A stretch of 64,000 nucleotides of DNA from Pirellulaceae bacterium (GTDB lineage: Bacteria > Planctomycetota > Planctomycetia > Pirellulales > Pirellulaceae): the NCBI GenBank assembly GCA_041753075.1, contig JBGSVE010000007.1:19823-83822 (forward strand), read 5' to 3'. Below the pieces are notes generated by a model that had not been told where the DNA came from, did no database searches, and saw only the letters and a program-made list of their open reading frames with translations. Shown one piece after another: positions 709 through 34,126 of this stretch. Position 1 is the stretch's first letter, and each line of letters begins with the position of its first letter. The position numbers and the translations under genes were made by a program.

Positions 709-748
709 TCTAAAATTTTACTGACCCGAAATTTGAGCTGCGACGCTG

Positions 749-3251: not shown

Positions 3252-3257
3252 CGTTAG

Positions 3258-4091: not shown

Positions 4092-4328
4092 GGTGTTCTC
4101 CGATTAGGCCAAGGGTTCGCCAGCGACTGGATTTTAGACACATTGTCTGTGTCGGTCAATTCGCCCCGGCGGCCTTTTCGACGGAGTGAAGCGGGAGCGA
4201 GTTTGCGATCTGTTTGTGTAGCTTGAAACCGAAGTATCCGTCGGTCAAGCCGATGGGATTACGACGAACTAGGTTACAATGATGCTCCCGACCAAACTAT
4301 TTCCCGCCAACGTATCAAGTTAATTTCG

Positions 4329-6614: not shown

Positions 6615-6768
6615 TTACGGCTGGGAACTTCATTTGGTGCAATCCATCTTCCGATTGCGCCTTCCGAGCAGAAAGTGTACGGCATCGAACAAAGTTATCT
6701 TGCCTGATCGATGTGAACAAAGGTTCGGCAATAGCTGACTTAGTCGCCTAAGCAGTGCGAAAGGCGAA

Positions 6769-8205: not shown

Positions 8206-9149
8206 TGCGATTCCCAGGCAGATGGACTCAGATTGCTGTTACGATAATCTCTTGGTGATGTTCCGGTCAAAGCACGGAATTGTCGGCTGAAGTAGTTGCT
8301 GTCCGTAAAGCCAACGGCCATGGCAATCGCCGTGACGCTGCTGTCGCTTTGTGCGAGTAATTTACACGCTTGACGAATTCGTAATCGAATTAAATAAGCG
8401 ATCGGCGGACAACCCATTGTCGACTCGAATGTTCGCAGGAAATTTCGCCGCGACATGCCAGAGATTTCGACCAGCTCGTCCAGCGAAACGGGGTCCGCGT
8501 AGTGCCGTTCAATCAGCGAGATCGCCTCCGCAATCCGCAACAGTGACTTGCTTCGTGGATTGCGCGATTGGCTGTAGCAGCGAGAAAGAAAAGTGACCAA
8601 CTGCAATAGTGTTGTTGTCGCCATCACGCCAAACCCGGGGCCACGGTCGGTGAGCTCCAAACTAAGCTGATCCACCAAACTAATCGCCTGCACCAATTCG
8701 GGCGGTGACAATTGCAAACGGCTATCGAACCCGTGGCGTTTTCGCCAAGCAGGTTCGAGTGTGAACAACGCGTGATATCCGGGAAGCGACGGCAAATCAC
8801 TCAGCGTCATCGGCAACTCGGATGCGTCGAACAAGACGTTGATCAGCCGCAGTTGATCCATATTCAAATAGTCGTGCGGTCGCGTTGGCCCGATCACAAA
8901 CGTGTCGCCTGTCGCCAGTACGTAGGAATCCTCGCCGGTGATGTGCTCGCCTTTGCCACCCGTGATGATCACGATCTCCGAGAACTCGTGGGAGTGCAGC
9001 CCAAAAGGCTTTTGGGGATCACGCCGCTCCACAACGATCGGAAAACCATCCTCGTGAAACCAGTCCTGCTTCTTCAGCACCTGCATAGCGAATCGTTGCC
9101 CATAATGTAGAATCGGCTGCCGGTAGGAAGCGGAAAGGTTGTGCATCAC
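8202..9149 (-). CDS. AraC/XylS-family transcriptional regulator (cupin sensor + HTH), RhaS/RhaR-like
   Basis: 315-aa ORF. It has an N-terminal cupin-like region ([18 protein letters not shown]) and a C-terminal AraC HTH ([32 protein letters not shown]). It is divergent from rhaA. Confidence 0.85.
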
Positions 9150-12436: not shown

Positions 12437-14275
12437 TCAATTTGAACCAGCGCTATTGAACCCGCGCATCCAGATCTGCTTTTCGAATTGGTTTCCGGCA
12501 GCAATCAAATGGCTCATGCACGCTAGGTAGGCAGCTTCGAGCGAGCAGGTTTTTTCGATGACGCCAGCGCCGCGACTGCGCGATTCGTTGCGCCGTTGGC
12601 TGGCTGAGATCGCGAGTACGTCCAGTAGTTGCGTGGCTGTCGTTTGGTAACTTTGTTGGAGTCGTCGTTGTTCTCGTCGATGGGTTTGGGTGCCCAGGGC
12701 TGGGACCGACATGCGACCGCCCAGCGCGAGCCCGGTCAGACGACGGCGCAGCGAATCAAGGCCATCCGGGGGCGAACCAGGCTGCGGTGTTTCATCGCTT
12801 AAGATCAGTTCGTCGCTCCAGCGTCCAATGCCAGTGAAGTGATGTCGTTGCAGTCGATCCAATCCGATGTTGCACACACTGTCCCACTGCGGCGGCAGGT
12901 CCAGTTCGGGTCGCGCACCTTTTGTCGCGTCGTCATTGATGTTTAAAGTGGTCGGGGCAATCGCGATCAGATCGACTGCACCCGCCGCAGCAAGTCTTAA
13001 GCGACCAAGGCATCGCAGCGACAAGCCTGGGCAACGCGCCAACAGGGCCAAGTTTTCGCGATACGCCAATTGTGCATCATCGATCGCAATTGTCAGCCGC
13101 CAGGGAAGACTGACTCGTTCGACATCGACCAATACACTCGCACCGCGTGGGCCGACAATCACAGCATCGAACGCGACCAAATCCCAACCACCATGACGCT
13201 GCGGCTCGGACATTAACGCACGCTGAAACACTCGCCGAATTTGCTCGTCCAGCGGCAAGCCGAAACGCCCCGCAGCGAGCCGACCGTCGCTCCCACGCGT
13301 CGCGTGCACGGCCCAGCGAGTCGTCTTGCCTTTGCCGAGGCGGCCATCGCCGGACACCTGCAAATTTTGTACAGCAAGCAAACCGCGACACAACGCTTTG
13401 GCGTCCAACGTCACGGTTCCCAGGTCAATGCCACCGCCATACGCCTGCAAAACAAGTTGCCGATCGCCAGGCCGTAGTTCATTGACCGTGAACAAATCTT
13501 CGTCACCCGCCACACTGCCTTGCAGGTAAACGCATACGCCTGCGTAGCCGCTGAGCGTCAGGATCGGCTCGGCACAAATGCCTTCGAGCTTGCGTACGTC
13601 GATGGGATCAAAGCCTCGGCGCGATTGGCCAACGAGCCACTGCGGCGCGCTGGTTTGTGTGTTGATGCGGTGAGCAGTTAACAGCGCACTAGCGAGGTCA
13701 TCCCTTAACGCGCCTGCATCGGATGTATCGCGATTGGCCCGCAATCGTCCGCTGCCTTCGACAATTCGCAAGAGCGTATTGCCCAGCGCAACCAATCCGC
13801 ACTCGCGACACTGATGCGCCGCTCGCAGGATACTCGATTGCACCAGCAACCCCGCACCGCTTGCGCCGACGCGAAGCAGTGCCGCGACCGCAGCTTGGGC
13901 CAATCGCGCCGCCGTTTGCATTTCTTCAGTGATTGTGGACGTGGCTGGGGCTGCCTCAGTCTCCTGACTCTGATCCGCAGAATCATCGTCCGTTGCCGTC
14001 GCCAAGATGTTGATGCACGCGACGACGTGAAAACATTTTGGTGTCAACAAGCAACTGCATTGCAATTGCTCGGAGGAAACAATCACGCCGCCCTCGCTGC
14101 GTAACTCAACGGTTTCTTCGCCGGCTGCGATCGACCATCGGTCTGCGTTGAAAACCCATTGCCAACGATCGGCAACCACGGGTTCGGCATCGAGTCGTTT
14201 GCGAACACGGCCGGGCATTGAATCGATCAGTTCGGCCAGTAAGATCGCGCTGATTCGCGGTCGCGGTACGTTCAT
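12437..14275 (-). CDS. SWIM zinc-finger protein (YehQ-like)
   Basis: ATG at 14273-14275 overlaps the stop of the upstream vWA gene as ATGA. The SWIM signature CxCx(n)CxH is present as LQCSCLLTPKCFHVVAC. The remaining ~500 aa are unrecognised. Confidence 0.8.
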   Translation of the reverse strand: MNVPRPRISAILLAELIDSMPGRVRKRLDAEPVVADRWQWVFNADRWSIAAGEETVELRSEGGVIVSSEQLQCSCLLTPKCFHVVACINILATATDDDSADQSQETEAAPATSTITEEMQTAARLAQAAVAALLRVGASGAGLLVQSSILRAAHQCRECGLVALGNTLLRIVEGSGRLRANRDTSDAGALRDDLASALLTAHRINTQTSAPQWLVGQSRRGFDPIDVRKLEGICAEPILTLSGYAGVCVYLQGSVAGDEDLFTVNELRPGDRQLVLQAYGGGIDLGTVTLDAKALCRGLLAVQNLQVSGDGRLGKGKTTRWAVHATRGSDGRLAAGRFGLPLDEQIRRVFQRALMSEPQRHGGWDLVAFDAVIVGPRGASVLVDVERVSLPWRLTIAIDDAQLAYRENLALLARCPGLSLRCLGRLRLAAAGAVDLIAIAPTTLNINDDATKGARPELDLPPQWDSVCNIGLDRLQRHHFTGIGRWSDELILSDETPQPGSPPDGLDSLRRRLTGLALGGRMSVPALGTQTHRREQRRLQQSYQTTATQLLDVLAISASQRRNESRSRGAGVIEKTCSLEAAYLACMSHLIAAGNQFEKQIWMRGFNSAGSN

Positions 14276-17200
14276 GATAAGAGGGTTCCTTGCGGTGAAT
14301 TCGCTGTCTGTCCAGCTTGTCCGCGAATTTGATCGCCGACCCAATCGGCCAATCGTTCGGGGCTGACCGCGGCCACCGGCATGCCCGCGGCCGCGACCAT
14401 TTGTGCGTAGCCTTGATGAAACCGCGCCGTGCCTGTGTCATCCAGCGCGGCCAGCCCGACGCACTTCGCACCGGACTGCGCAATCGCGCGAACTTCGGCG
14501 AGCATCTCGCCCACCGAAACTCCCTCCTCAAAATCCGACACCAACACGACGATCGATCGCGACGGCACTTTCAATCGGGACCTGGCGGCACCTAGTCCCA
14601 AACCAATATGCGTCCCGCCGCCAACCTGCACCTCCAACAGCAATGCCAACGGATCAGTCACATGCTCGCTCAGATCAATCACCTCGGTACTGAACGCCAA
14701 GAACCGAACCGATAGCGCCGGCAACTCCGCAAAAATTGCCGCGCACAACGCAGAATAAACAACCGATGTGGTCATCGATCCCGAGACATCGACCACAAAC
14801 GTTAAATGCCAATCCATCTCGCGTCGCGATTGCGTGTTGAATAGCAATGACTTGGCCACGATCGCTGGCCGGCCATCGTCGCGTCGATAGGCATTGATCA
14901 AGTTTTCGCGAATCGTTCGTGGCAAGTTCAAGCGGCGCGAACGTCGCCGCGTCGGCCTCGGCGATGACAATCCGCTCATCGCGGGGCGAAGGCGGACGGC
15001 CAGGCGTTTGGCCAGTTGTTCTGTGATCCGCTTGGCCAATCGCCTCATCCGCTCGGCTCGAACTTCGGCCAAGCCGCCGGCGAGCGACAACACCTGTTGC
15101 AACAATTCGATCGACGGCGTGACCGCATCGGGATCAAGCAAGTCCAAGGCAACTTGATTTCCCCTGCCCGCCGACTCGCCCAACACTTCTTGACAAATGT
15201 CGGCACCAAACAATGCTTCCAAATCATCCGCCCACTGGGCTGTCGTCGGCATCGGTGCTTCGGTGCCGCCGGATTGGCGGTTGGCCAGACCGCCTTGCGA
15301 GCCTTCGCCGCGTCCGCGACCGAACAATTGATCTAAACTACTCGCTGCACCGGAGCTTGCTTGCCGATTCTCCGGCGGCAGTCCAAGTATCATTCGCCAA
15401 CGATCCGCGAGCGTGATTCCATGCGCGGGATCTGTCGCGGCGATCTCATCGGCGGACGAGTCGTCAGTTATTTTTTCTTCGCTTGCCGGCGCGTTGGCTA
15501 AATCAAATTGAAAATTCGGAAAGATCGCCAGCACAGCTTGGCGTCCCGCCGAATCGGCCTCGCGCCGCATCGCGACCAACTCCGTCACATCACTGAAGCC
15601 ATCGGAAGCAATCGCGGCGAATGCGGAACCACGCTCGTGGTAGGATTGCAAACGAGCTTCCAGCAGTCGTATTCGGTTGGCGGGTGAAAATTTATGAAAC
15701 GCACCGCGCAGCGACGGTAGTCGTTGTAAAAACGAATCGTCGTCGGCGGTGCGAATCCGCGACTCCAATCCGTCTAACCAAACCATGTCGCCTTGCATCA
15801 TTGCCAAGAGCACGTGTACCGATCCCGCTAACGCATTCCTCAGGCGACTTCGCGACTGAGTATCCACGGCGGCATCGAACCAACCGCCGAGCAATTCCGC
15901 GAACTGTTCCGCCGTCTGTTTTTGCAGCACGCACAGCATTCCTGCGGCCGCTCCGCGCATCAAATCGCTGCCTCGCCCCAGCGTCCGCTGGCACCAATGA
16001 ACCAATCGCAATTGACCCGCGTCGAGCAGCGCAATCGCCGTCTTGTTGCCATTATCGAGATCGCATTCCAGCACTTCGCGCAAGTCACCGTTGAACCAAT
16101 GGACCAGATCGCTGACACCGATCACATCGTTGTCATCGTGCGAGCCTTCGAGTCCTTCCAAGCGATCCAAGCAGGCGCGCAACAGCGCCGCCATTTGCAA
16201 AGAAACATTCGTATCGCGAAACACCGCGAGTATCGGCGGATACGAATTGGCTTCGTCGCGCGGCAGACCCGGAATGTGTCCAGCGGAGATGCGTCCAAGT
16301 ATCGTGGCCGCAGCGACCAACTCGACCAACCCGCCGGTTCTCAGCAATGTCTGGTCAAGTGTTTGCAAGCTCCGGTGTACGAATTGGTTTAAGCCACACT
16401 GCGTCGCGATCTCCAATTGCTGGACAATCGACGCAGGTGGTGTCTGGTCACTCGTCACACTTCGCAAGATCCCTTCGACCACCTGCGGCAGCGCCACGCC
16501 AAAGCGCGACACCGCTTCAATGGTCGCCGAGGTCCCTTGGTGCCAAGCGACTTTCCAGCGCTCGGCAAGGTTCTCGCGTTGACCTTGTTCGATTGAATCG
16601 ACACGCGTCGCATAAGGGATTGAGGCCGCGCACAATCGTCTCAACACCACGGCTTTGGCGCGTTCACGCGGCGATCGCAGCACATCCAATCGGACCTCGC
16701 GCGGTTCGTCGCCAAGGGTCCCTTGCGTGGGCAAATGCAACGATTGTAGCAGCGTTTCGAGCGACACGGCCAAACCGCAACGCGGCACACGCCCGGACAC
16801 CGCTCCTTGGCGATTACCAATCAAAACATGCGCCGACGCTTTAGAAACCTCGCGCGCCCGGCCGTGCAATTCGCCTTGCACCAAGCAGGACTGAATCGAC
16901 TCGATCAATTCGCTTCTGCCCGCCGCGGCAAGTCCCCGCAATCGCGCCAGATCGCGCATCATTCGCATGATCTCGCTGGCGTCCGGCGTTCCGGCGACAT
17001 GACCGCGATGACGCATTTGGCGGCAGATGGCGACGATGATCTCACCCGCTGCGGCATCCATGGCGGTGAGGCTGTCGGCGGTGACCATTCGTTGGTGCCA
17101 AACCGGATCCAGAATCCCAGCCGGATAGCCGCTGCGTTCATCAAGTTGTTCAAAGCTGTAAGGCACCAGTGAGACGCCGACCGCCTCGGACGATGCGGAA

Positions 17201-17904
17201 AGTTCGGCCAGCAGTTTTTGATCATTCGTCGCTTCACGTTCAACAACTTCGCGAACCAGCGCCGCGGCGTGGAACGAACCGATTACGGCGGCGCTATGCG
17301 GCGGTGCGGCGCGAATGCACTGGCGCATCGCAGCCTCGCGCAATCGATCTCTTGGCGAAACGATCGGCGAGCTGTGGCGGACGGCCCAGCCGAACATCAG
17401 CGCCGCTTGGCGAGTTGCGTCGGGATCAGCGAGCATTGCCGGTGATTCGACCAAGCGTTCCCACAATTGACCCGTGTCACGAGAACTTGTTCGTCGCAGC
17501 AGTTCGTCCAACAGCAGGCAAGGATCCGCAAGTTCTACAGTGTCCACGACCAAGTTCGCCTTCGCACTCACCGATAGATCACAAGCGACAACCGGCACAC
17601 TGTGCTTAAACGCCCACTTGATGGCGACCAGTTCAGGAGAAAAATCGGCGAGCGGATAGAACGCCAAATCGCCACTCGCGTTGGCTGCAGAAATCGCAAT
17701 CGGAGCGACCGTGTCCTGGTCCGCCAAATACTCAAGCCATGGATTGAAATCCGCAGGCATCTCGACCAACAATTGATCCGGCTTGAATGAATCGAGCATT
17801 GCCCGAATCGTTCGCGCGATCGCCGCGGAATGATGACGAACGCCAATCAGCAGCGGCGTTCGACATTCGCACAGCGGTGCGATATGATCGGAAGGGTCGT
17901 TCAT
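14272..17904 (-). CDS. Fusion protein: TraB/TIKI-like N-terminus, large DUF5682-like middle region and C-terminal vWA (MIDAS) domain (YehM+YehP-like)
   Basis: Start taken at the ATG at 17902-17904; the ORF extends to a TTG at 17949. The N-terminus has LIGVRHHS..(x15)..PDQLLVEMP. The C-terminus has a CoxE-like vWA domain with the MIDAS motif FVVDVSGSM, plus GGGTHIG and VVLVSDFEEG. Confidence 0.8.
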   Translation of the reverse strand: MNDPSDHIAPLCECRTPLLIGVRHHSAAIARTIRAMLDSFKPDQLLVEMPADFNPWLEYLADQDTVAPIAISAANASGDLAFYPLADFSPELVAIKWAFKHSVPVVACDLSVSAKANLVVDTVELADPCLLLDELLRRTSSRDTGQLWERLVESPAMLADPDATRQAALMFGWAVRHSSPIVSPRDRLREAAMRQCIRAAPPHSAAVIGSFHAAALVREVVEREATNDQKLLAELSASSEAVGVSLVPYSFEQLDERSGYPAGILDPVWHQRMVTADSLTAMDAAAGEIIVAICRQMRHRGHVAGTPDASEIMRMMRDLARLRGLAAAGRSELIESIQSCLVQGELHGRAREVSKASAHVLIGNRQGAVSGRVPRCGLAVSLETLLQSLHLPTQGTLGDEPREVRLDVLRSPRERAKAVVLRRLCAASIPYATRVDSIEQGQRENLAERWKVAWHQGTSATIEAVSRFGVALPQVVEGILRSVTSDQTPPASIVQQLEIATQCGLNQFVHRSLQTLDQTLLRTGGLVELVAAATILGRISAGHIPGLPRDEANSYPPILAVFRDTNVSLQMAALLRACLDRLEGLEGSHDDNDVIGVSDLVHWFNGDLREVLECDLDNGNKTAIALLDAGQLRLVHWCQRTLGRGSDLMRGAAAGMLCVLQKQTAEQFAELLGGWFDAAVDTQSRSRLRNALAGSVHVLLAMMQGDMVWLDGLESRIRTADDDSFLQRLPSLRGAFHKFSPANRIRLLEARLQSYHERGSAFAAIASDGFSDVTELVAMRREADSAGRQAVLAIFPNFQFDLANAPASEEKITDDSSADEIAATDPAHGITLADRWRMILGLPPENRQASSGAASSLDQLFGRGRGEGSQGGLANRQSGGTEAPMPTTAQWADDLEALFGADICQEVLGESAGRGNQVALDLLDPDAVTPSIELLQQVLSLAGGLAEVRAERMRRLAKRITEQLAKRLAVRLRPAMSGLSSPRPTRRRSRRLNLPRTIRENLINAYRRDDGRPAIVAKSLLFNTQSRREMDWHLTFVVDVSGSMTTSVVYSALCAAIFAELPALSVRFLAFSTEVIDLSEHVTDPLALLLEVQVGGGTHIGLGLGAARSRLKVPSRSIVVLVSDFEEGVSVGEMLAEVRAIAQSGAKCVGLAALDDTGTARFHQGYAQMVAAAGMPVAAVSPERLADWVGDQIRGQAGQTANSPQGTLLS

Positions 17905-17936
17905 CAAGTAAATCGTATGGCAACGAGGGGGTTGGG

Positions 17937-18170
17937 ATGTCAGTAGCAAATCAAGCCAAGGAGGTTTACGAAGCGGATTTGCGCCAACGATTGGAAGCCG
18001 AGCATTTCGGTGAGTTTGTTGCGATCGAACCCGATTCGCGTGATTATTTTATTGCGATCACTTTCATTGATGCCGCGATGGCCGCGAAGAAATGTCACCC
18101 GACCAAGAAATCTTTTGTGTTGCGAGTTTGTCACGAAGCGGCAGTGCATCTCGGAGCGGCCACTAAGTGA
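17937..18170 (+). CDS. Small protein, DUF5678-like partner of a retropepsin-like protease
   Basis: 77-aa product from the ATG at 17937, preceded by a GAGG-like Shine-Dalgarno sequence. The pattern FGEFVAIEPDSRDYFIA...AAMAAKKCHP resembles the small proteins usually encoded upstream of AF_0612-type aspartic proteases. It overlaps the next gene by 4 nt. Confidence 0.5.
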   Translation: MSVANQAKEVYEADLRQRLEAEHFGEFVAIEPDSRDYFIAITFIDAAMAAKKCHPTKKSFVLRVCHEAAVHLGAATK

Positions 18171-18544
18171 TCGGCCGCGTTGACGACAACAAGCGCGCTT
18201 TGTTACCAGTTCAAGTTCGTGCGAAGTTCGCGAAGCAATCATTTTCGGTTGATGCGTGGATTGACACCGCGTTCGATGGACACTTTGTTTTTGCGTTGGC
18301 GTTGATCGATCAGCTTGGTCTTGAGACGCTGGTAGAAACCGAGGCTATTTTTGCGGACGGCAGTAAGGTGACTCTGGAAACATTTGTCGCGTACCTCGAT
18401 TGGTTTGGAGCTGTGATTCCGGTTCAGGTTGTTGCGAACGATAGGCAATACCCACTTCTTGGAACAGCGCTGCTTGAAAATTGTCGCTTGACGATTGACA
18501 CCAACAAATTGGTTGAGTTGAATTTAGTCGAATTGGCGCACTAA
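18167..18544 (+). CDS. Retropepsin-like (clan AA) aspartic protease, AF_0612-like family
   Basis: 125-aa ORF with a GTG start overlapping the previous stop. The active-site-like motif is WIDTAFDG (DTA variant of DTG). FADGSKV, YLDWFG and the flap/dimer motif PLLGTALLENCRLTID follow. Its stop codon overlaps the stop of the convergent ATPase gene. Confidence 0.7.
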   Translation: MIGRVDDNKRALLPVQVRAKFAKQSFSVDAWIDTAFDGHFVFALALIDQLGLETLVETEAIFADGSKVTLETFVAYLDWFGAVIPVQVVANDRQYPLLGTALLENCRLTIDTNKLVELNLVELAH

Positions 18545-19692
18545 CCCTCCAAGTCTCCTCGCAATTCAGCGAGTCTTTTCCAAAGAAATGCACCCGTATC
18601 GGCGCGACGCCGCACCGCTCCGTCCCAATAGCCGAGCAAACGCTCGCGATCCTTTGAATCATCCTTCATCACGACGCCTAGTAGATGTCCGGGCAATCGC
18701 GAGACAGGGTCAAAGCCCGACGGAAAGAACACGCCCTCACGATGAATCGCCGTCGTGATTGCGACTGCCTCGGCGGTGCTCATCACTGTGCTGGGTTGCT
18801 GAACTTGCCAACCCTCGGACGTACGGCCGGATCTCAAGTCGCGGAAAACAGTGACCAACAATTCCACCAGCGCTTTGTCAACCGCCGGCGCAGGACCGCC
18901 GGCCGACAAGATCGCTGTGGCGCGGCGCGAGACCAATTCGACTTCACGATCGGCGTCGGCGATCGGTGCGATCGTCTCAAAGTTGAAGCGTCGTTTCAGT
19001 GCCGCTGACATCTCCGACACGCCGCGATCACGCAGGTTTGCCGTGGCGATGACGTTGAACCCCGGCGAAGCAAAAACGCTCGAATCATCACCGCTCAATT
19101 CAGGAATCATCATCCGTCGCTCGCTCAAGATTGAAATCAATCCGTCCTGCACTTCGGGTAAACAGCGTGTGACTTCTTCGAACCGCACGAGCTTGCCGCT
19201 GTTCATCGCTTGCATCACCGGTGAGGCAACGAGTGCGTCAGGCGTTGGCCCGCGATCAAGCAACATCGCGTAATTCCAGCCGTAGCGAATTTGATCTTCC
19301 GTGGTGCCGGCGGTGCCTTGAATCGTTAGCGCCGACGTACCGCTAATCGCGACGGCAAGCAGTTCGCCCAGCATCGATTTCGCCGTTCCCGGTTCGCCAA
19401 CGAGCAACAAGCCACGTTCGCCCGCCAAGGTGACGACGCAGCGTTGAATGATGTCGCGCGGACCGAGAAATTTTTCCTCGATAACCATTGATTTTGTTTT
19501 CGACGGACCGATCCGTTGGCCATCGGTGCCGCAAATAAAGTCGATGATCGCTTGTGGAGAAAGCAACCAACCGGCCGGACGATGGGCGGTGTCGATTTCG
19601 GCAAGCAGTTGCAATTCGTCACGATGCCGCAGCTCCGCCGGAGGATTTTGCATGGTGGCGGTAGCTGCAGTCGATGCAGATTTCTTTGGCAT
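18541..19692 (-). CDS. MoxR/AAA_5-type AAA+ ATPase (YehL-like)
   Basis: Walker A is LLLVGEPGTAKS and the Walker B-like motif is KLVRFEEVTRC. LPEVQDGLISILSERRMMIPE, FNVIATANLRDRGVSEMSAALKRRF and an arginine-finger region follow. Start set at the ATG at 19690-19692, because the longer ORF to 19998 would overlap the upstream gene. Confidence 0.85.
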   Translation of the reverse strand: MPKKSASTAATATMQNPPAELRHRDELQLLAEIDTAHRPAGWLLSPQAIIDFICGTDGQRIGPSKTKSMVIEEKFLGPRDIIQRCVVTLAGERGLLLVGEPGTAKSMLGELLAVAISGTSALTIQGTAGTTEDQIRYGWNYAMLLDRGPTPDALVASPVMQAMNSGKLVRFEEVTRCLPEVQDGLISILSERRMMIPELSGDDSSVFASPGFNVIATANLRDRGVSEMSAALKRRFNFETIAPIADADREVELVSRRATAILSAGGPAPAVDKALVELLVTVFRDLRSGRTSEGWQVQQPSTVMSTAEAVAITTAIHREGVFFPSGFDPVSRLPGHLLGVVMKDDSKDRERLLGYWDGAVRRRADTGAFLWKRLAELRGDLEG

Positions 19693-19719
19693 AGTTGACG
19701 ATGATTGGGGATCGAGTGT

Positions 19720-19783
19720 GAGCGGATCGGCGCTAGCTGCCGGTTCCGAGTGCGAACGACCGGTGGCTAGCGCCAATCCGCTC
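19720..19783. repeat. REP-like palindromic element, copy B (inside the operon)
   Basis: Arms are gagcggatcggcgctagctgccggt (19720-19744) and accggtggctagcgccaatccgctc (19759-19783): 25 bp with 3 mismatches and a 14-nt loop. The right arm overlaps the stop codon (19782-19784) of the 1683-aa gene. Confidence 0.6.
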
Positions 19784-22700
19784 ACTGCTTGCGTTTTTTC
19801 TTGGTGATGGTGTCTTCGTAACGCGGGATGTCGCCGTGTTCGATCCTTGACCATGTTGATTGGAAGTGGCCAGCGATTGAACCGTGGAGCACGATTCGGT
19901 CCGCGCTGCCGCCGCGCAGACGATCGGTATTGGCGTGTCCGAACAACGGCAACTTCCATGATTCGATCGGCAAGTTCGGTTGCTTGAGCGGTTCCCATCC
20001 GCCGGGCAAGAAGATGTCTCGACCGGCGCGTTCACGTTTGGCTTCGACCAAGTGCCCGGCGGCGACCAACTCGCTGGCCGCGGCGGCGTAGTCCTTCGTC
20101 GCCCACTGGTTCCATCGCTTCACGTTGGCCGCCGTGGGATCGTACAGTGCCAGAACCTGTAGATACAAAGCGGCCGCTGATTCGCTGACCTTCAACTTCT
20201 TAGCACAAGCCTTGACAATTTCCGGCACTGACAACCTCGGGTCTTGTTCCCAGCTTCCTGCGGGCAACGTGCTACTGCGGATCTCGCTGGCCAGTCGCGT
20301 CATTGCATCACTGCGCATTAGCATCACGCCTTGGGCCGCAAGATTATGATGCACGCCTGGTTCCGAATAATCGAATGTTGCGTTGACCGCTGCGGACAAC
20401 TTGGCAAACGCTTTATCATCCGTCAATTGCGCCGAGCGAAACAGCATTCGGATTGCCGGAGGTATTGTAGCGACGACAACCAACCCGTTATCGCCGCGAT
20501 ACAAACCATCAGCCGCTAACTCCAGTTTGGTGATCGTCGTGCTGAGCCTGATGATGGTATCGTCAAGCTTCAACTCTTGATCGAGGGGCGCGGTAAAATT
20601 GGCCCCGAAAGGAAATAATGTTGACGGTTCATCTAGGAACTTGCGAACTTCGTCGACCACATCCGGAATCGCAACGCGAGCTTCGGCACCGGTGGGTAAT
20701 TCGTAATTGATCATGGCGAGCGATAGAAGCACATCGCCCAATAGCGTCTCAGGCACAAACCGCGGCGTGGGATCGTATTTCCTGTCGATCATGTGGTAGA
20801 CCGCAGGCCGACCGGTCGGGACCAATGACATGGTTCGCCGCTGCAAAAACTCGGACGCCTGCGGGTCGGCGAGTAGGCTGGCAATGTGCGGTTGGTGATC
20901 GCCCAAATCAAGTTTCTTCAGCAGCTCTGCGGGCAACGAAATCGTCTTCTTCAAAAACTGTGTCCACTTGGCAATCATCTGGTCAAACGCACGATCACGT
21001 CCATCGAGCATCGCACCACCCGGATTATTTCGCACGCCAATCGAACCGACGGTTGACGCTAATTCGATGGCGTTTAGCTCGGCGATCGCGGTTTGGATAT
21101 CTTTGACTTTCCACGAGTAGAAATCACGAAGCTCTTTGGTCAGCTTCTCTTGGCCGTAGTTAACGGTGCGCAGGTTGCTCATCCACGCCAGCGCCGGTGT
21201 GATCGGATGAACACCGATTTTTGCAGCGGCGTCAGCCAATTGTTCCGTTGACGGCAGCGGCAACGCCTGCACCGTTTTCACTCCTTTGATGAATGACAAC
21301 AAGCTGTTGCGGTTCCAGCCTGGGTCAAGCACGGTTGTTGAATCAACGGTCAAACCTTTTGGTGGTTTTGGTTTCCCGTTGGCTGAATAACCGATTACAG
21401 TCAGGACGTTTTCGTAATAGCTGTGTTGCACAATCGCAACGAATCGATTGTGGCCTTCGACAAAAGTGATCGGATGGGCGTCCGCTCGCGCGGCCAGTGA
21501 ATCGGGCTTCGGTGTTTGGTCTGCGCCTAACGCCACATGATATAGGTGTATCTTCTCGCTGAGCTGTAGCAGGCCGGAATCAGCCAAACAACTCAGCGCA
21601 TCAAGCCACGGGCCCCCGAGCCGCTGGGGTATCGATTCCCCAGCAGACTCGTTCACACCAAGTGACCAAAAACATTTCCAGACTAACGATGGTAAATCGT
21701 CGAGCAGTCCAAGCCAAAAGGTTTGGCAAGCAGGGATTTCATCGTTATCGCAGCCGCTCAGGAATTTCCCCACCGCCATCACATTGGCCGAAATCGAACG
21801 CTCTTCGCTAGGCTGGTAATAACAAATCGGCGACCGTTTCTGTTGCGTCATAAACGTGAAACCCGCGTCGGCTCGCTGGGCGTCGAACGTCGGCAATGCG
21901 GCTTGCGGCGTGTTGGGATCAGGCAACACTCGCGTCAACAGATTTTGCAACGAAATCGATTCTTCAGCGGCCAAGCGTGCCAACCGCGCAATGCCCGCAA
22001 TCAATCGCGGCGGTGCTTGGGGCAGTATTCGCGTGGCAACCGTGGCGGCAATCGTGCGCTCGGGGTCAGGGTTGGCCGGATCATCTTTCCTTTTGTATGC
22101 CTGGTGATTCGTCAGGCCAGCTTCCAGCAACTCGCTCGCTTGCTTGAGCGTAAGTTTTCGCAGCTTCTTCGATGAGTCGAGGCAACGTGGTTGCATTAAG
22201 TTCAAGAAGATAGTGGGAAGCACTGCGGGTTGGCCGAAAGCGTACTTCTGGTGGCCATCATAAGACCCGAAAGCGATCCCGGTTTCTGAATCAACGAGCT
22301 TGCCACCGTCATGCAAAATCCAAAATGAGTTTGACCCCGGCTTGTCGATCATCGCCTCGGCGAAGCGGTATCGAGACGTGGTTTGCTGGTCCGCCGTGAC
22401 CACACTTTTGCGACCATCAATCCCCTGGTACTCAATTGCCGCATCACGACGGCGAACCACACGCCAACCGATCAAACCAGCCTTACTGCCCAATGGCGAT
22501 TGGCCCGCTTGAGTTGGTTGTGGCATCAGATAGCTGGACCCATAGACAATTGTTGCACCGGAGGGCAGCGACTCCTCGAAAAACGGCGGGACGCTATCGC
22601 GCAATTCTTTGCCGGTGCGCGGATCAAGCTCCGCAATCGCCGCCGGCGGAATTGTCGTCTCGTTGTGATTCGACCAATGAACCGCGTCTTCCTTCACACG

Positions 22701-24833
22701 CCAAAACCGAGCGCCATCATGGAACCACTGCCGTGTTGGCCTTGGCCACTGGGCATCGCCGGTGCGGACAGCCCGCTCGCCGCAAAAGTATTCGTCGTCG
22801 CCCAACGGGACAATTTGCGATCGATGCGAACCGTAATAATGGCCTTCGTCATGCTGGGTGGATTTGCCCGGTTCGCTGAGCCAACGTACGAACGTGTGCC
22901 AACCCAATGCCGAATCACGAACCATCATGAGCACATCGTCGCCGAGCGGAACCAGGTAGTTCAGAGATTCGGTCGGCGACAATTTTACCTCGCGCGGCGG
23001 GCAACTACTGGCCGGATCAATCACATGCACGAAGCCGTCGAGCACATAAGCCAATCGCGGAAACGATGGAAAAATCAATTGCTCATGCCGTCGACTCACC
23101 TTCGGCAACGGCTTTTCATCGGCGGCCTTGTCCAATTCCGGCCAACCGTATTCGTCGAACACACCGGCGATTAGCGTGCGGTGCAGAATCGTTGCGAAGT
23201 CGATGCTCCGCAATCGTTTGACAAGCTCAGGAAACTCGACCAACACGCGCGGGCGAATGCAGTTTTGCAATTCATTGGCGGCCTGCTCGACGTCCACCAA
23301 CCCACCGACTTCGAACGCCTTCAATTGTTTGTCGAGGTATTGCCACCAGGCATCACGCACGACCGGATGTCCCGCCGCCGCTTCATCAAACGCGCGTCGA
23401 GGGGCCACGTCGCGAGACCACGACGAACCCTTACCCGGACTGTCTCCCGCGAACGAAACCAAGCTTGGGATCGCAACCTGCAGCGCTGCGATAAACTGTG
23501 GCTGGGCCGCGACGTGCTTCAATTGCGAGTTGCGCCGCGGGTGATCGACATCACTTCGCAGCCAACCCGCAAAGTCGAGTTCAAACCACGGGGGAATCGG
23601 CACCTCAAGTCCCAGATCGAGGTACGTTTCCAGCACATCAACGTCAATGCTGCGACCGCGATGAACCGAGGTGAATGTCATCGGTTTGGCTTCCGCTTTC
23701 AACACCTCGGCCATCGATTCCAACAACTCGAACACGCGTTTGTTCGGCGAGCTTTCGACTGCGGCAATCGCGCCGATCCAATGAGCTCGTCCGCCGGGCA
23801 ATTCGACTTCCTTGGGCCATTGGTCCAGCGGTTGCGAAATCATCGGCAACACGCCCCACTCATCGAGCAGATCCAGCCATTGCCAAACGGGACTGTCGGT
23901 GCGGTAACTATATTGAGGGTTGGTATGGACGAGTAACCAAGCGGCAAAAGTTCGCTCACGTTTGGCGATGCGCGCGGCGGCTTGCTTAACCGACTTCCAA
24001 AACTGGATCGACGCACGGGCCATCGCGGGTGAGGTGATGATCGCCTCGAGCACCGACTCCAGTTCAACGATCGGATCAAGCTTCGCCGCCTTAGCCATGC
24101 GGTTAAGGTCGATTGCGACGTTGGTTACCGGTGGCATACCGCCGAGCGTGCGACGAATGACTAAATCCTTGAACGTCTCGTAAGCATCGGCGGGCTTGAA
24201 TTGTTTCTCGAGGTCTTTGGCATAATCGGACAACGCCTTGCCCGACAAACAACCGCTGAGTGCAAATTCAAGCACCGCATCACGGCGATGCTCGCGATCA
24301 ACCTTCAACGCATGAACCCGCTCGGCTTCGAGTGCCTTGTTGAGGCCGCGACCGGCGTAGGTTTGGTTGCCCAAGTCTTTGAACGTCCGCGCGACCTGCT
24401 CCCAAAACGGCGGCAACAAATCACGCACCGACTTGTTCAACTCGTCGGCCATCTCGGTGTATAAATCCCACGCGGAACCTGGTTTCGACGCAGCCTTGCG
24501 GGCCGTCGATTTCATTCGTTTGACGAGGTCCAATGCGTACTTGGCATGCTGGGGTTGATGCACCAGCGACCAGTGTGCGAAATCGAGCGCGGTGCGCGTC
24601 TGCATCGCAATCGGTTCGCTGATCGCGGTGCCTTGAAGTCCCAGAAATTCCATCGCCAAGTCTTCAGCCGGCACCAACCGATCGGCGCTGAGCGTGATGA
24701 TGACGCGATTCCCCAGGACCGCGGCAGCGTAAGTTCGGGCGACGATCGTTTCCGTCGTCTTGGGATCGCATTTCGATTTTATGGCCACCAAGCCGCCGGC
24801 AGCGAGCTGAGATTCGACAAAGTCTTTGCTCAT
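19782..24833 (-). CDS. Giant (1683 aa) cytoplasmic protein of unknown function, operon member
   Basis: Uninterrupted 5052-nt ORF whose ATG overlaps the stop of the upstream DUF4132-like gene as ATGA (24830-24833). It has no signal peptide, TM segment or catalytic motif that I recognise, and a Lys-rich C-terminal tail (TKKKRKQ). Confidence 0.8.
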   Translation of the reverse strand: MSKDFVESQLAAGGLVAIKSKCDPKTTETIVARTYAAAVLGNRVIITLSADRLVPAEDLAMEFLGLQGTAISEPIAMQTRTALDFAHWSLVHQPQHAKYALDLVKRMKSTARKAASKPGSAWDLYTEMADELNKSVRDLLPPFWEQVARTFKDLGNQTYAGRGLNKALEAERVHALKVDREHRRDAVLEFALSGCLSGKALSDYAKDLEKQFKPADAYETFKDLVIRRTLGGMPPVTNVAIDLNRMAKAAKLDPIVELESVLEAIITSPAMARASIQFWKSVKQAAARIAKRERTFAAWLLVHTNPQYSYRTDSPVWQWLDLLDEWGVLPMISQPLDQWPKEVELPGGRAHWIGAIAAVESSPNKRVFELLESMAEVLKAEAKPMTFTSVHRGRSIDVDVLETYLDLGLEVPIPPWFELDFAGWLRSDVDHPRRNSQLKHVAAQPQFIAALQVAIPSLVSFAGDSPGKGSSWSRDVAPRRAFDEAAAGHPVVRDAWWQYLDKQLKAFEVGGLVDVEQAANELQNCIRPRVLVEFPELVKRLRSIDFATILHRTLIAGVFDEYGWPELDKAADEKPLPKVSRRHEQLIFPSFPRLAYVLDGFVHVIDPASSCPPREVKLSPTESLNYLVPLGDDVLMMVRDSALGWHTFVRWLSEPGKSTQHDEGHYYGSHRSQIVPLGDDEYFCGERAVRTGDAQWPRPTRQWFHDGARFWRVKEDAVHWSNHNETTIPPAAIAELDPRTGKELRDSVPPFFEESLPSGATIVYGSSYLMPQPTQAGQSPLGSKAGLIGWRVVRRRDAAIEYQGIDGRKSVVTADQQTTSRYRFAEAMIDKPGSNSFWILHDGGKLVDSETGIAFGSYDGHQKYAFGQPAVLPTIFLNLMQPRCLDSSKKLRKLTLKQASELLEAGLTNHQAYKRKDDPANPDPERTIAATVATRILPQAPPRLIAGIARLARLAAEESISLQNLLTRVLPDPNTPQAALPTFDAQRADAGFTFMTQQKRSPICYYQPSEERSISANVMAVGKFLSGCDNDEIPACQTFWLGLLDDLPSLVWKCFWSLGVNESAGESIPQRLGGPWLDALSCLADSGLLQLSEKIHLYHVALGADQTPKPDSLAARADAHPITFVEGHNRFVAIVQHSYYENVLTVIGYSANGKPKPPKGLTVDSTTVLDPGWNRNSLLSFIKGVKTVQALPLPSTEQLADAAAKIGVHPITPALAWMSNLRTVNYGQEKLTKELRDFYSWKVKDIQTAIAELNAIELASTVGSIGVRNNPGGAMLDGRDRAFDQMIAKWTQFLKKTISLPAELLKKLDLGDHQPHIASLLADPQASEFLQRRTMSLVPTGRPAVYHMIDRKYDPTPRFVPETLLGDVLLSLAMINYELPTGAEARVAIPDVVDEVRKFLDEPSTLFPFGANFTAPLDQELKLDDTIIRLSTTITKLELAADGLYRGDNGLVVVATIPPAIRMLFRSAQLTDDKAFAKLSAAVNATFDYSEPGVHHNLAAQGVMLMRSDAMTRLASEIRSSTLPAGSWEQDPRLSVPEIVKACAKKLKVSESAAALYLQVLALYDPTAANVKRWNQWATKDYAAAASELVAAGHLVEAKRERAGRDIFLPGGWEPLKQPNLPIESWKLPLFGHANTDRLRGGSADRIVLHGSIAGHFQSTWSRIEHGDIPRYEDTITKKKRKQ

Positions 24834-25735
24834 GATTCCGGCGACTCCTGCTTTTCAACCTTGCGCTTGGCGTAGATCGCGCTGGCCATGCGAACCCCTT
24901 CGCTGAACGTTACCGCACCGACATCACGAATCGTGACCGCCTGTTGACTCTTGTTGACAAAAATCAATTCACCAGTCTCCGTTTCCGCTTCGGGATACTC
25001 GCCGCCGATGTAATAGCGCGCTTCCAGCGGCAGGATGCCTTCCCAAACTTTGCAGGTTGCATAGCCACCACGAACGGGATACCCAAGCCGACGACAAACA
25101 CCAATGGCAAAGTTCAGTTGTTCGAACACGCCACCTTGGTAATCACGAATCGACGTCAACGCAGATTGTTCTTCGGTCGGTTGATAGACGGGGCGGTACA
25201 ATTGTTCGATTGGTTGCACAGCCTTGATGTCACCGGCCAATTCACGCAGGTCGTCAAGTTCGGCAATCAGGATCGGATGCACAACGGCGATGGCGGCGCT
25301 CTTGAGCCACTTCGATTCGCCATCAAGGTCAACGATACCGATGCCTTTTTTTGCGTCCACATCGCGGAGCAATCCGACATGCTCAACGTCGAGCTTGCCG
25401 GCCGCGTTGGCCCCGGCGATCACCATGTTTTCCAGCGCCGCGCGCCAAGCGTCGTCGGGCCAAGTGTTGACAATGACCTCGCGGGGAACGACCAGAGACC
25501 GGAGCATCCAATGTTCGACGGTGTGTAGGCAATGCAGCGCATGGTCATTCATCCACGCGGCGAGGGCTTGCAGTTGATCGAAGACCGGTTCCTCTTTGAG
25601 CCATGACGGAACCGAGGCGAGCCGTTTGCCTTTGGCGTTCAAGCAAACAACTTTGCCGTCGTCGAGACCGAGCTGATGTTCTTTCGGAGCATCGAGCCAC
25701 GAAGTGGGCATTGAGGCCGGTGCATGAACAGCCAA
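24830..25735 (-). CDS. DUF4132-like protein (MolR/YehI C-terminal domain-like)
   Basis: 301-aa ORF. The TTG start at 25735 is preceded by GGGAG; an alternative ATG lies at 25711. The pattern W..D..W.....N.V and then VHPILIAELDDLRELAGDIKAVQPIEQLYRPVY matches my recollection of the DUF4132 core (HP..l....W......qPF.QL.R). Confidence 0.6.
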   Translation of the reverse strand: MAVHAPASMPTSWLDAPKEHQLGLDDGKVVCLNAKGKRLASVPSWLKEEPVFDQLQALAAWMNDHALHCLHTVEHWMLRSLVVPREVIVNTWPDDAWRAALENMVIAGANAAGKLDVEHVGLLRDVDAKKGIGIVDLDGESKWLKSAAIAVVHPILIAELDDLRELAGDIKAVQPIEQLYRPVYQPTEEQSALTSIRDYQGGVFEQLNFAIGVCRRLGYPVRGGYATCKVWEGILPLEARYYIGGEYPEAETETGELIFVNKSQQAVTIRDVGAVTFSEGVRMASAIYAKRKVEKQESPES

Positions 25736-26007
25736 AGGTTGCTCCCTATCGTTGAACGGTTAGAGAAAAGTATGTCGTAGCTTAAAGCAGCAGGATAGCG
25801 ATTTGAACTGTGCTGCGGGAAAAATCTTTGCCACGCCTGATTCGCTAATTCATCTCAAATTCTCGCGGTTTCTTCGCCAATTCAGCGGCGGCAACTTAAC
25901 GTCAAGTTAACGCTGCGCTGACCGACTATTCGCTGTTTCATTTTGGGCGAGCACTACTTTATCGCCTGCACAAACTGGGCGTCAGCTTCAAAAAAAGGAA
26001 TGTTTCA

Positions 26008-29000
26008 ATGGCGGGTTTCATTGCGAATACACTTCGTTTGGTGAGTACGAAGAAGCGAGCTCGAGCGTCTTCGACGTTGAAGCGCCGACGACAAATGATC
26101 GAGCATCTCGAAGCACGCAACCTCTTTGCCGCCAGTCTGAATATCGAGTTTGGCGGCTTTTGTGTTCCTGAGTTCAACCCGCTGCCGCAAATCACGAAGG
26201 GGTCAGGCTCCGGTGGTCCGAACCCAACGATCACGCCCGACTACACATTGCAGCTTTTGCATTTTGCCGATGGCGAAGCGGGTTTGTTGGCACCGACGAC
26301 GGCACAGAACTTGGCCGCGCTGGTCGATGCGTTTGATGGTACCTATGCGAACACTTTGATCTTGTCGGGCGGTGACAATTGGATACCTGGGCCGTTTGTT
26401 GCTGGCGGCACCGACGCAGCGGTTCGTGCAGTGCTTAATGACGTCAGCGGTTCAACAATCGCCGCCGGAGTTAACATTCCGATCGCAGCGGTCGATATTG
26501 CGATTCATAACGAGATCGGTGTCGAAGCATCGGCGGTTGGCAATCATGAGTTCGATCTTGGCTCGCGAGTCTTTCGCGATAGCTTCTCGCCTAACCTTGG
26601 CGCGGCGGGCTGGTTCGGGGCAAACTTCGTTCACGTCACGGCCAACCTCGACTTCTCGGGCGACGCCGATCTCGCTTCGCGATTTACCAATACACTCGAC
26701 GGCGGTACGACGACGCTGATTCCCGAGGCGACGACGCTGCGAGGGCGAATCGCTCCGTCGGCCGTGATCACCAAGGGTGGCGAGAAGATCGGGCTTGTCG
26801 GTGCCACGACTCAACTGATCGAATCGATCTCATCACCCTCGGGCACCGAAGTGCGCGGCTTCCCCGTTGGTCCAGGGCCCAATGGCGAAACGGACAACAT
26901 GACGTTGCTGGCCGCGCAGCTTCAACCCGTGATCGATGAGCTGCGGGCCGAGGGTGTCGACAAGATTGTGTTGATGTCGCACTTGCAAGTCATCGCCAAC
27001 GAGCAATTGTTGGCGACGCTGCTCAATGGCGTGGACATCATTTTATCAGCCGGCTCGAACACGCGACTTGGAGACGCCGACGATGTTCCCGTCGCGTTCC
27101 CAGGCCACGCGGCAAACTTCGCCGGCACCTACCCGCTGGTGACTGCGGGCACAGACGGCAAGCCAACGTTGATCGTCAATACGGACAATGAATACACCTA
27201 CCTTGGCCGTTTGGTTGTTGATTTCGATGCCGCTGGCGACATCATCGTCTCGAACCTAGCGGGCTTAACGGCGATCAACGGTGCCTACGCATCGACGACT
27301 GCCAACGTCGCGGCGGCGTGGGGAGTCAGCGAAGCAAACTTGGCGACGACGGCATTTGCCGATGGCACCAAGGGTGAAGAGGTCCAAGATTTAACCGACG
27401 CAGTCCAGGCGGTGATTGCCGCCAAGGATGGCAACGTCGCTGGGTTCACGAATGTCTATTTGCAGGGCGAGCGGTTGGCCGTGCGAAACCAAGAAACCAA
27501 TCTTGGCAACTTAAGCGCCGATGCGAATTCGGATGCGCTGGCGTCGGCCTTGGGCGCAAGCTCCAGCTCGACGTTCGTCGTCTCGCTGAAAAACGGTGGC
27601 GGGATTCGTGCGCAAATCGGCACGGTTTCGGCACCTGATCCCGTGACGGGCGAAGTAAATTTCTTGCCGCCGCCAGCGAACCCCAGTGCGAATAAACCGG
27701 CGGGCGCGGTGTCGCAGCTTGACATCGAAAATTCGCTCCGGTTCAACAATACGTTAATGGCGTTTGACACCACGCCGGTTGGACTCAAGGCGATTCTTGA
27801 ACATGGCGTTGCGTCGTTGCCCAATCAAGGTCGCTTTCCTCAAATCGGTGGCGTGTCGTTCTCATTCGATCCGACTCGATCGGCGAATGACCGCGTCCGC
27901 AACATCGCTTTGATCGATGAAAATGACCGCGTGATTGTCAAGGTGTTCGAGAACGGTGTTGTCGCGTCGACCGCACCGACATCGATCACCGTTGTCACGT
28001 TGAACTTCTTGGCTCAAGGTGGCGACGGATATCCGATCAAGGCGAATGGTGACAATTTCCGCTACCTGCTCGATGGCCCGACGATCACTTTGTCAGCGCC
28101 GGTTGACGAAACACTCGACTTCAGCGCGGCGCAGAATTTGCCGGCCAACGTGCTGGGTGAGCAAATGACGCTTGCCGATTACCTTGGCACACGTTATCCA
28201 ACCGCACAAACGGCGTACAATCTCGCTGACTCGCCAGCGACGCGTGATCGGCGAATTCAAAATGTGTCAGTGCGAAACGATGGCGTCTTCGACAATCTGC
28301 CGGCATTGGCCGTCACGCTGCAAAACACGATCGTCTCGTTGCCGGAAAATGCCAGTACGAGTGCCGCGACGAAGCTCGCTGATATCGTCATCTCCGATGA
28401 CATCTTTGGCACCAACGCACTGAGTCTCAGCGGAGCCGACGCGGCGAATTTTGAAATCGTCGGCACCGAGTTGCGGTTGAAGGCCGGTACAAAGATCGAC
28501 TTCGAGGCTCGCACCAGCTTTGCGATCACCGTGCAAGTCGATGACCCAGCGGTTGGCGCTTCACCTGACGCATCGACGAACTTGAAGTTGTCGATCACCG
28601 ACGTTGCCGACGGTGCCGCACCTTTGGCCAGCAACTCGCTCGTCGTTGTACCCACGGGCTCGTATGTCAGCGGCAATGTAGGTGTAGCGGAAATCGTCGC
28701 GCACGATCCCACGCTGCAACGACTGTTTAGTCTCAATGGCGTGCTGAACCAACTTGATGTGCTGGACATCTCCAACCCGGCCAACCCGACGTTGCTCGCG
28801 CCTATCAGCTTGTCTCCGTTCGGTACGCTGCCGAACAGTGTTGCCGTCAATAACGGCGTGATCGCCGTTGCCATGGAAGCCTCGACGAAAACCGAACCGG
28901 GAACGGTTGTGTTGTTCTCGACCGCGGGCGTGTTGCTCAACCAGTTAACCGTCGGAGCCCAACCGGATAGTTTGACGTTTACGCCGGATGGTTTGAAGGT

Positions 29001-34059: not shown

Positions 34060-34126
34060 TACCGACCACGTTTGCCACAAAAAATGTTTGTTTTCGACCG
34101 CCACTTCCTCGACGAGGTTAACCCCG

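Follow-up and report, generated by a model that had tools for sequence, protein, structure and literature searches.

A giant-subunit architecture of the YehL-type MoxR family in Planctomycetota, a possible ATP-driven machine with DNA-damage-regulated relatives

We analysed a 64,000-nucleotide stretch of the Pirellulaceae bacterium assembly GCA_041753075.1 (contig JBGSVE010000007.1, positions 19,823 to 83,822 of the forward strand; hereafter the window, numbered from its first letter) and studied a cassette of five minus-strand genes in it, here called g1 to g5. They encode a DUF4132 protein, a giant protein, a MoxR-type AAA+ ATPase, a DUF5682 protein fused to a von Willebrand factor A (vWA) domain, and a SWIM-like zinc-finger protein. 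The cassette is a real and well-conserved member of the YehL-type family with a distinct architecture, which is common in databases and, as far as we found, undescribed in the literature. We propose, with an even balance of confidence and doubt, that the five genes encode one self-contained, ATP-driven machine for remodelling or processing, of YehL-type, giant-subunit architecture and possibly linked to DNA damage. An intact AAA+ motor, an intact adaptor with a metal-ion-dependent adhesion site (MIDAS), three conserved partners, tight gene spacing and inheritance as a block support this proposal. The genes are as follows.

24830 to 25735, minus strand: g1, stand-alone DUF4132 protein, 301 aa from a TTG start (Pfam PF13569, E 7.6e-26)
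19782 to 24833, minus strand: g2, giant subunit, 1683 aa (no family match; AlphaFold2 models)
18541 to 19692 (ORF up to 19998), minus strand: g3, YehL-subfamily MoxR AAA+ ATPase, 383 aa (Pfam AAA_5, E 2e-34)
14272 to 17904, minus strand: g4, DUF5682::VWA_CoxE fusion, 1210 aa (DUF5682, E 1.3e-130; VWA_CoxE, E 1.4e-49)
12437 to 14275, minus strand: g5, SWIM-like zinc-finger protein, 612 aa (CSCLLTPKCFH motif; hhalign against YehQ-type proteins)

The open reading frame (ORF) list gave five co-directional minus-strand ORFs (24830-25735, 19782-24833, 18541-19998, 14272-17949 and 12437-14344), in agreement with an earlier note, made from the sequence alone, which had placed five such genes from 25735 to 12437. 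That note had also reported two ATGA start/stop overlaps. Both are real, because a direct read of the minus strand gives ATGA at 24830-24833 (g1/g2) and at 14272-14275 (g4/g5); in these 4-base overlaps the TGA stop of g1 overlaps the ATG of g2, and the ATG of g5 overlaps the stop of g4. An alternative start at Met9 is possible for g1. The start of g3 is most likely Met103 of the long ORF (19692, 383 aa) and not the first ATG at 19998, since the alignment with YehL begins only at ORF residue 116, and homology places the start of g4 at 17904 (1210 aa). The spacer between g3 and g4 is not a tight junction: it measures 636 nt (17905-18540), compared with 45-250 nt in other loci. The motifs GEPGTAKS, VRFEEV, DVSGSM and CSCLLTPKCFH were all present and are kept in 50-58 related loci. 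GC content and GC at third codon positions of the five cassette genes match those of the neighbouring genes, and a recent horizontal transfer of the cassette is therefore not supported.

A locus scan with one genome per species returned 78 loci with a homologue of the giant protein, nearly all of them from Pirellulales, Planctomycetales, Isosphaerales and Gemmatales. Wherever the contig was long enough, tblastn recovered the order g1-g2-g3-g4-g5, and the complete five-gene cassette was found in more than 50 Planctomycetota loci from these four orders, including Gimesia and Singulisphaera, with unrelated flanks. Identity to the window proteins ranged over 62-78% for the ATPase g3, 45-69% for g1 (60+ loci, always directly upstream of the giant gene), 39-59% for g4, 28-52% for g2 and 29-48% for g5. 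The same architecture, with the DUF5682::vWA fusion and the small DUF4132 protein, is present in the chromosomes of Yinghuangia and Actinacidiphila; an 846-kb linear Streptomyces plasmid carries the cassette with an ATPase 63% identical to g3, and one metagenome contig also has it. No flanking gene family was common to more than 7 of about 80 loci, so the five genes are the unit, and they are inherited together as a block while their neighbours change. The neighbourhood check that the earlier note had proposed thus gave the same gene order in the planctomycete loci and in Streptomycetaceae. Its description of the locus as a rearranged form needs correction: the arrangement is not local and is a fixed architecture across Planctomycetota and Streptomycetaceae.

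Several loci departed from this pattern. In three of them (L015, L041 and L076), the DUF4132 and giant genes were present, but the next 9-10 kb or so downstream contained neither the ATPase gene nor the DUF5682-vWA and SWIM genes, and two (L078 and L081) had the giant gene alone; these five may be second copies or decayed systems. Giant homologues also occurred outside Planctomycetota and Actinomycetota labels, in metagenome-assembled genomes labelled Gammaproteobacteria (L028, with a DUF4132 gene after the giant gene and the ATPase about 9 kb away) and Chitinophaga (L068), which could reflect mis-binning or real transfer. The Gimesia maris copy (L002) has four genes for PT-HINT polymorphic toxins to one side, and a transposase and a reverse transcriptase to the other (flank coordinates 428-8743 and 22488-25073). 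Adjacency to metG, seen in E. coli and Singulisphaera only, was dismissed as a coincidence.

The motor of the cassette is well defined. Compared with the E. coli K-12 locus NC_000913, g3 was 48% identical to YehL over 344 aa (E 2e-101), the N-terminal part of g4 was 26% identical to YehM (E 4e-30) and its C-terminal part 33% identical to YehP (E 6e-53), which bears out the relation to the E. coli yeh cluster that the earlier note had drawn. The AAA_5/MoxR assignment with Walker A GEPGTAKS was likewise recovered. Walker A and B, sensor-1 and the arginine finger are intact in g3, and its motifs (GEPGTAKS, VRFEEV, sensor-1 ATAN and KRRF) are invariant in 57-58 homologues. The FEEV Walker B, which had been called unusual, is the norm of the subfamily, because E. 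coli YehL has VRFEEI and R-x-E-E was found in 58 of 58 homologues. In a PDB search, the nearest solved relative of g3 by sequence was the AAA ring of Midasin (E 3e-10).

The gene next after the ATPase, g4, encodes a fusion in which PF18934 (DUF5682) covers the full model and is followed by a vWA domain matched by PF05762 (VWA_CoxE). Both the fusion and the CoxE-like vWA domain with its DVSGS MIDAS motif had been predicted, and the Pfam results agree. The vWA motifs DVSGSM, GGGT and [ST]DFEEG are kept in 49-50 loci. Two parts of g4 are of particular note.

about 14338 to 15003, minus strand: vWA domain with intact MIDAS (DVSGSM, GGGTH, VSDFEEG; motifs and Pfam)
about 17125 to 17874, minus strand: putative TraB/GumN/Tiki-like hydrolase domain, N-terminal ~250 aa (GVRHHS, VEMP, DFSPE, REAAMR, GSFHAAA)

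The first ~250 residues of DUF5682 carry an invariant set (GVRHHS, hhE, FSPE, D, W..E, RE..M, G..H), which is kept in about 50 loci and in all three architectures of the family described below. The order and spacing of these motifs match the GxxH / E / RNxx[MW] / GxxH pattern of TraB/GumN proteins such as E. coli YbaP, and hhalign of the DUF5682 N-domain with a TraB/GumN profile placed four motifs co-linearly over 182 columns (E 1.3e-3). This constellation may be a hydrolase site of TraB/GumN/Tiki type, a speculative reading that we regard as a lead. A PDB sequence and profile search with g4 gave nothing useful.

PF13569 matched g1 over the full model, and the DUF4132 assignment of the earlier note was thereby recovered; a PDB sequence and profile search with g1 gave nothing useful. 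The 1683-aa product of g2, described in that note as having no recognisable domain, indeed had no match in Pfam (even at E 10), NCBIfam, PADLOC or the sequences of the PDB. AlphaFold2 models of its two halves reached predicted local distance difference test scores of 87.2 and 87.9 and suggest the following regions.

g2, aa 1-80: small N-terminal alpha/beta domain (model)
g2, aa 85-575: alpha-solenoid (model)
g2, aa 587-860: beta-propeller (model)
g2, aa 880-1530: mixed alpha/beta region with no known fold match (model)
g2, aa ~1530-1683: C-terminus, helix-helix-helix-hairpin (model)

Foldseek found generic ARM/HEAT and propeller proteins only for the N-terminal half (best E 4.8e-5, low TM-scores, the template modelling measure) and no match below E 0.06 in the PDB for the C-terminal half. 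The RefSeq name of the giant protein, 'DNA-binding protein', is unverified because Foldseek gave only these generic matches for the N-half and none for the C-half. Homologues of g2 are full-length throughout Planctomycetota with a nearly constant length of ~1640-1765 aa, and an actinobacterial giant protein aligned end to end with the planctomycete profile (hhalign E 3e-131). An exhaustive search with residues 1-1200 as query gave 674 cluster representatives at E<=1e-3, of which 363 reached E<=1e-30; nearly all had 1550-1700 aa. A 'split YehI' origin, in which g2 would be the N-terminal part of YehI-type large DUF4132 proteins, has no support at the sequence level, as BLASTP and hhalign found no similarity with either a single sequence or a 4-sequence profile. 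By hhalign, g2 also showed no similarity to DUF5691.

The last protein, g5, carries CSCLLTPKCFH at aa 73-83 (about 14027-14059), and the form CxCLLxPxCFH (CxCx5CxH) is invariant in 50 loci. No Pfam family, SWIM included, matched g5 even at E 10, nor did any model of NCBIfam or PADLOC; E. coli YehQ passes the Pfam SWIM model at E 1.2e-7. BLASTP aligned g5 and YehQ in the Cys/His motif only, while hhalign of the g5 family profile with a 4-sequence YehQ-type profile gave E 3.6e-5, a probability of 71% and 288 co-linear columns, in which the g5 motif aligns with the second SWIM of YehQ. Streptomyces has full-length homologues of g5 that carry the name SWIM-type domain protein (E 1e-35 to 1e-41). 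No similarity was found between g5 and a single Deinococcus SWIM protein, and a PDB sequence and profile search with g5 gave nothing useful. The invariant CxCx5CxH, the gene position and the YehQ-type alignment thus lend moderate support to a SWIM assignment. Of the profile checks that the earlier note had called for, Pfam recovered DUF4132, DUF5682, AAA_5 and VWA_CoxE and did not recover SWIM; for SWIM itself, the motif and the distant YehQ-type alignment stood and the Pfam match did not. In eight Pirellulaceae loci (L004, L005, L011, L013, L018, L039, L049 and L055), g5 lies upstream of g1 and divergent from it.

Comparison of these loci with annotated genomes showed that the YehL-type family comes in three fixed architectures. 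In type A, a large DUF4132 protein, often with a WGR start, is encoded with AAA, DUF5682, vWA and SWIM proteins; the annotations of plasmids and chromosomes show this type in E. coli, Bacillus mycoides, Streptomyces and Sinorhizobium. Type B consists of SWIM, DUF5691, AAA, DUF5682 and vWA genes and occurs in Deinococcus taeanensis and Rhizobium etli. Type C is the giant-subunit form of the window cassette. The K-12 locus of type A reads yehF (WGR), yehH (pseudogene), yehI, yehK, yehL, yehM, yehP and yehQ; the former molR is yehF and yehH together, upstream of yehI, and YehI has 1210 aa with DUF4132 at residues 954-1138. WGR is fused to the N-terminus of type A large DUF4132 proteins in loci L086 and L088, and a WGR-like stretch in locus L001 (10274-10672) matches the E. 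coli yehI region at its start. None of the giant-type loci had WGR.

DNA-damage regulation recurs in two distant lineages of YehL-type relatives. The Deinococcus deserti genes Deide_18730-18690 encode a SWIM protein, a conserved protein, a MoxR ATPase, the product of an undescribed gene and a CoxE-like vWA protein. They are preceded by a radiation/desiccation response motif (RDRM), are strongly radiation-induced in an IrrE-dependent manner, and were named ddrTUVWX (PMC2669436, PMC4007540, PMC5552922). This operon belongs to the radiation/desiccation response regulon, and it alone among the relatives has expression data (PMC5552922). Depletion of DdrO in D. radiodurans derepresses DRA0165-DRA0166 (DUF4132) and DR2173 (WGR) (PMC8533742), and a list of genes whose SOS boxes are known includes E. 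coli molR (PMC6590174). Our literature search found no functional paper on DUF5682 or DUF4132, the latter appearing only in passing, and no published function for this gene set, in line with what the earlier note had stated for the E. coli yeh cluster. That note had missed one published functional lead, namely the DNA-damage regulation of the relatives (ddrTUVWX and molR).

Characterised MoxR-vWA pairs and Midasin suggest how the machine would work. The g3 ATPase would form a hexameric ring, the vWA MIDAS would grip an acidic residue of a partner, and ATP hydrolysis would pull on or remodel that partner. The giant g2 may serve as a platform, with repeat surfaces that bind protein and a possibly winged-helix-like C-terminus that binds nucleic acid, and the DUF4132 and SWIM-like proteins may be specificity or sensor subunits of this platform. 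More speculatively, the DUF5682 N-domain, if it has a hydrolase site, could cleave or modify the client, so that processing would occur besides remodelling. We favour, also speculatively, a role in the response to DNA damage or a related stress, with a nucleoprotein or a damaged protein as the substrate, because relatives are under LexA (molR) and under IrrE/DdrO (ddrTUVWX; the DUF4132 and WGR genes).

Several points count against this proposal. The proposed mechanism is an analogy throughout, and the DNA-damage link comes from architectures A and B, not from giant-type operons. No LexA-, Cheo- or RDRM-like box was found in the window or across 70 regions upstream of g1, and these regions share no conserved motif, with no 8-mer in more than 12 of the 70. 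Co-transcription of g4-g5 with g1-g3 may be disturbed because the 636-nt spacer holds an opposite-strand insertion. Neither the 'DNA-binding protein' name of g2 nor a winged-helix C-terminus has statistical support. As for the candidate hydrolase site, the similarity to TraB/GumN is below significance (hhalign probability 18%), PF01963 was matched by 1 of 28 DUF5682 members (E 0.077), and a PDB profile search with the DUF5682 N-domain found no match.

A bolder version, which we think improbable, would unite the cassette, yehLMPQ and ddrTUVWX as an unrecognised cross-phylum DNA-damage-response machine. Here a Midasin-like AAA+/MIDAS motor and a TraB/Tiki-type hydrolase would extract and process damaged nucleoprotein, for example a DNA-protein crosslink or a stalled complex, on the 1683-aa solenoid/propeller platform, as a functional analogue of Cdc48/p97 with Wss1/SPRTN in eukaryotes.

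Other roles were weighed against a self-contained remodelling machine. The cassette might be an anti-phage or other conflict system in which the MoxR-vWA pair gates a large sensor or effector complex, a role proposed for the ternary vWA-MoxR systems. The earlier note had named defence or conflict among its candidate roles and had pointed to these ternary systems. MoxR-vWA pairs are the core of predicted conflict systems (PMC7159879), the neighbours of the Gimesia copy include PT-HINT toxin cassettes, a transposase and a reverse transcriptase, family copies are found on plasmids of Streptomyces, Rhizobium, Bacillus and Deinococcus, and the giant protein carries a beta-propeller. However, PADLOC-DB 2.0 matched none of the five proteins at E 0.01, so that a defence role was not supported, and the bpMoxR model of Pfam scored 19.6 bits on g3 against a cut-off of 27, over 50 residues only. 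YehL, SWIM and DUF4132 are absent from the paper in which the ternary class was defined (Kaur, Burroughs, Iyer and Aravind 2020; PMC7159879), and membership in that class fails on these grounds. Moreover, the cassette showed no effector domain, such as a nuclease, protease, TIR or caspase, and none of its positions varies as an effector would: the genes keep their lengths and order, and sequence divergence follows taxonomy. The flanks in the window are metabolic, and no flanking family recurs widely among the loci. We consider a conflict role unlikely.

Two further explanations would make the pair a dedicated helper of another protein. If the giant protein were the client, the MoxR-vWA pair would fold, assemble or activate it, with the DUF4132 and SWIM-like proteins as assembly factors. 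Known MoxR-vWA pairs each serve a single dedicated partner whose gene is close by (PMC7159879, PMC2669436), and the few loci with g1 and g2 but no g3-g5 within about 9-10 kb suggest that this pair can live alone. This explanation has a probability that we place a little lower than that of a conflict system, for architectures A and B keep MoxR, DUF5682, vWA and SWIM without a giant protein, so the motor module is independent of it, and no catalytic domain that would need activation was detected in the giant. Alternatively, the pair could be a cofactor-insertion or maturation chaperone like CoxD/CoxE, NorQ/NorD or CbbQ/CbbO, for an enzyme encoded elsewhere. The vWA domain is of the CoxE-like family, and CoxD/CoxE take part in metal-cluster assembly (PMC4240915, PMC3471820). 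Yet in about 80 loci the cassette has no conserved client enzyme gene beside it, its conserved partners (zinc-finger, DUF4132 and scaffold proteins) are not metalloenzymes, and the 'molybdate regulator' name of MolR has no support in expression data (PMC8533742), which leaves such a chaperone very unlikely.

The remaining features of the region lie in the g3-g4 spacer, upstream of g1 and on the flanks.

17937 to 18544, plus strand: two overlapping small ORFs in the g3-g4 spacer, opposite in strand to the cassette, 77 aa and 125 aa
25736 to 26007: divergent intergenic region upstream of g1, presumed promoter region (direct sequence read)

The spacer ORFs overlap by 4 nt and have a GC content of 0.49, compared with 0.56-0.59 for the cassette. 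The 77-aa ORF had no family match. The 125-aa ORF resembles retropepsin-like aspartic proteases of clan AA, with a TIGR03698 match (E 1.7e-12) that falls short of the curated threshold. The plus strand has a promoter-like site at 17860-17888. Neither ORF was present in any other cassette locus; the pair looks like a small mobile two-gene module and is not part of the five-gene system. Upstream of g1, an imperfect 16-bp palindrome, AACTTGACGTTAAGTT, at 25893-25908 was considered as an operator and rejected, because the sequences upstream of g1 in 69 other loci do not conserve it. A promoter and terminator scan of the region gave counts at or below chance, and an Rfam scan gave one sub-threshold chance match only.

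The window flanks encode rhamnose isomerase, a sulfatase, an AraC regulator and a secreted phosphatase-like giant protein. A 482-aa ORF that lies between the cassette and rhaA (10699-12147, plus strand) had no Pfam match. On the other side, a divergent gene (26008-34059, plus strand) encodes a 2683-aa protein with 5'-nucleotidase C, phytase-like, choice-of-anchor I, PhoX-like and cadherin domains. This product is probably a giant protein for phosphate scavenging, either secreted or anchored, and its gene is followed by one for a PEP-CTERM protein (33893-34756, plus strand).

Few bacterial AAA+ modules without an assigned function are as widespread as the YehL-type MoxR systems, whose E. coli and Deinococcus members have long stood unexplained in lists of SOS and radiation-response genes. 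Architecture C adds a very large scaffold with a confident predicted structure and no match, represented by hundreds of sequence clusters in two phyla, and the invariant enzyme-like DUF5682 constellation is common to all members examined. These results give testable handles in suitable organisms, namely Streptomyces and E. coli, which are genetically tractable, and Deinococcus, which has transcriptomic and proteomic data on ddrTUVWX. The interest lies in the whole family more than in the copy of the window.

The cassette was finally compared with the closest known systems. The vWA-MoxR ternary conflict systems (PMC7159879) share a MoxR-vWA core with one or more extra conserved components, occur in planctomycetes and actinobacteria, and include one class with a beta-propeller. 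In the cassette, by contrast, the propeller belongs to the giant protein, which is separate from the vWA component; VMAP, iSTAND and FtsH components are absent, as are effector domains, and bpMoxR stays below its cut-off.

The DUF5682 N-domain resembles the TraB/PrgY/GumN/Tiki/EreA superfamily in a strand-GxxH, hhhE, R[EN]xx[MW] and hhhGxxH of like order and spacing (comparison set: E. coli YbaP and four other TraB/GumN proteins), and differs from it in the extra invariant RHH and SPE and in ~700 further residues downstream. Midasin/Rea1 and the RavA-ViaA, CbbQ-CbbO, NorQ-NorD and CoxD-CoxE pairs likewise combine an AAA_5-type ring with a MIDAS vWA that pulls a partner. In CbbO and NorD, too, a large N-terminal region precedes the C-terminal vWA domain. 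These systems have known clients (pre-60S assembly factors, Rubisco, nitric oxide reductase and CO dehydrogenase), often encoded nearby. The cassette has three extra conserved subunits.

The ddrTUVWX operon of Deinococcus (Deide_18730-18690) is likewise a five-gene operon with SWIM, MoxR ATPase, DUF5682 and CoxE-like vWA. D. taeanensis sequences stood in for those of D. deserti in these comparisons; the ATPase of the D. taeanensis operon was 44% identical to g3, and its DUF5682 and vWA matched at E 3e-35 and E 2e-41. The Deinococcus form differs in that the SWIM gene comes first, DUF5691 takes the place of DUF4132 and the giant, and separate genes encode DUF5682 and vWA. The E. coli yeh cluster has the same relative order of ATPase, DUF5682, vWA and SWIM or SWIM-like genes, a DUF4132 domain and a terminal protein of about 610 aa with CxCx5CxH. 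It differs in a small YehK, in a YehQ with two SWIM motifs that passes Pfam SWIM, in a DUF4132 domain at the end of a 1210-aa protein that has a WGR start in relatives, in separate genes for DUF5682 and vWA, and in having no homologue of the giant protein (hhalign negative). The three differences that the earlier note had drawn from the sequence, a small stand-alone DUF4132 protein, a DUF5682-vWA fusion and an extra giant subunit, therefore all hold, and they set the planctomycete and actinobacterial form apart from its E. coli relative.

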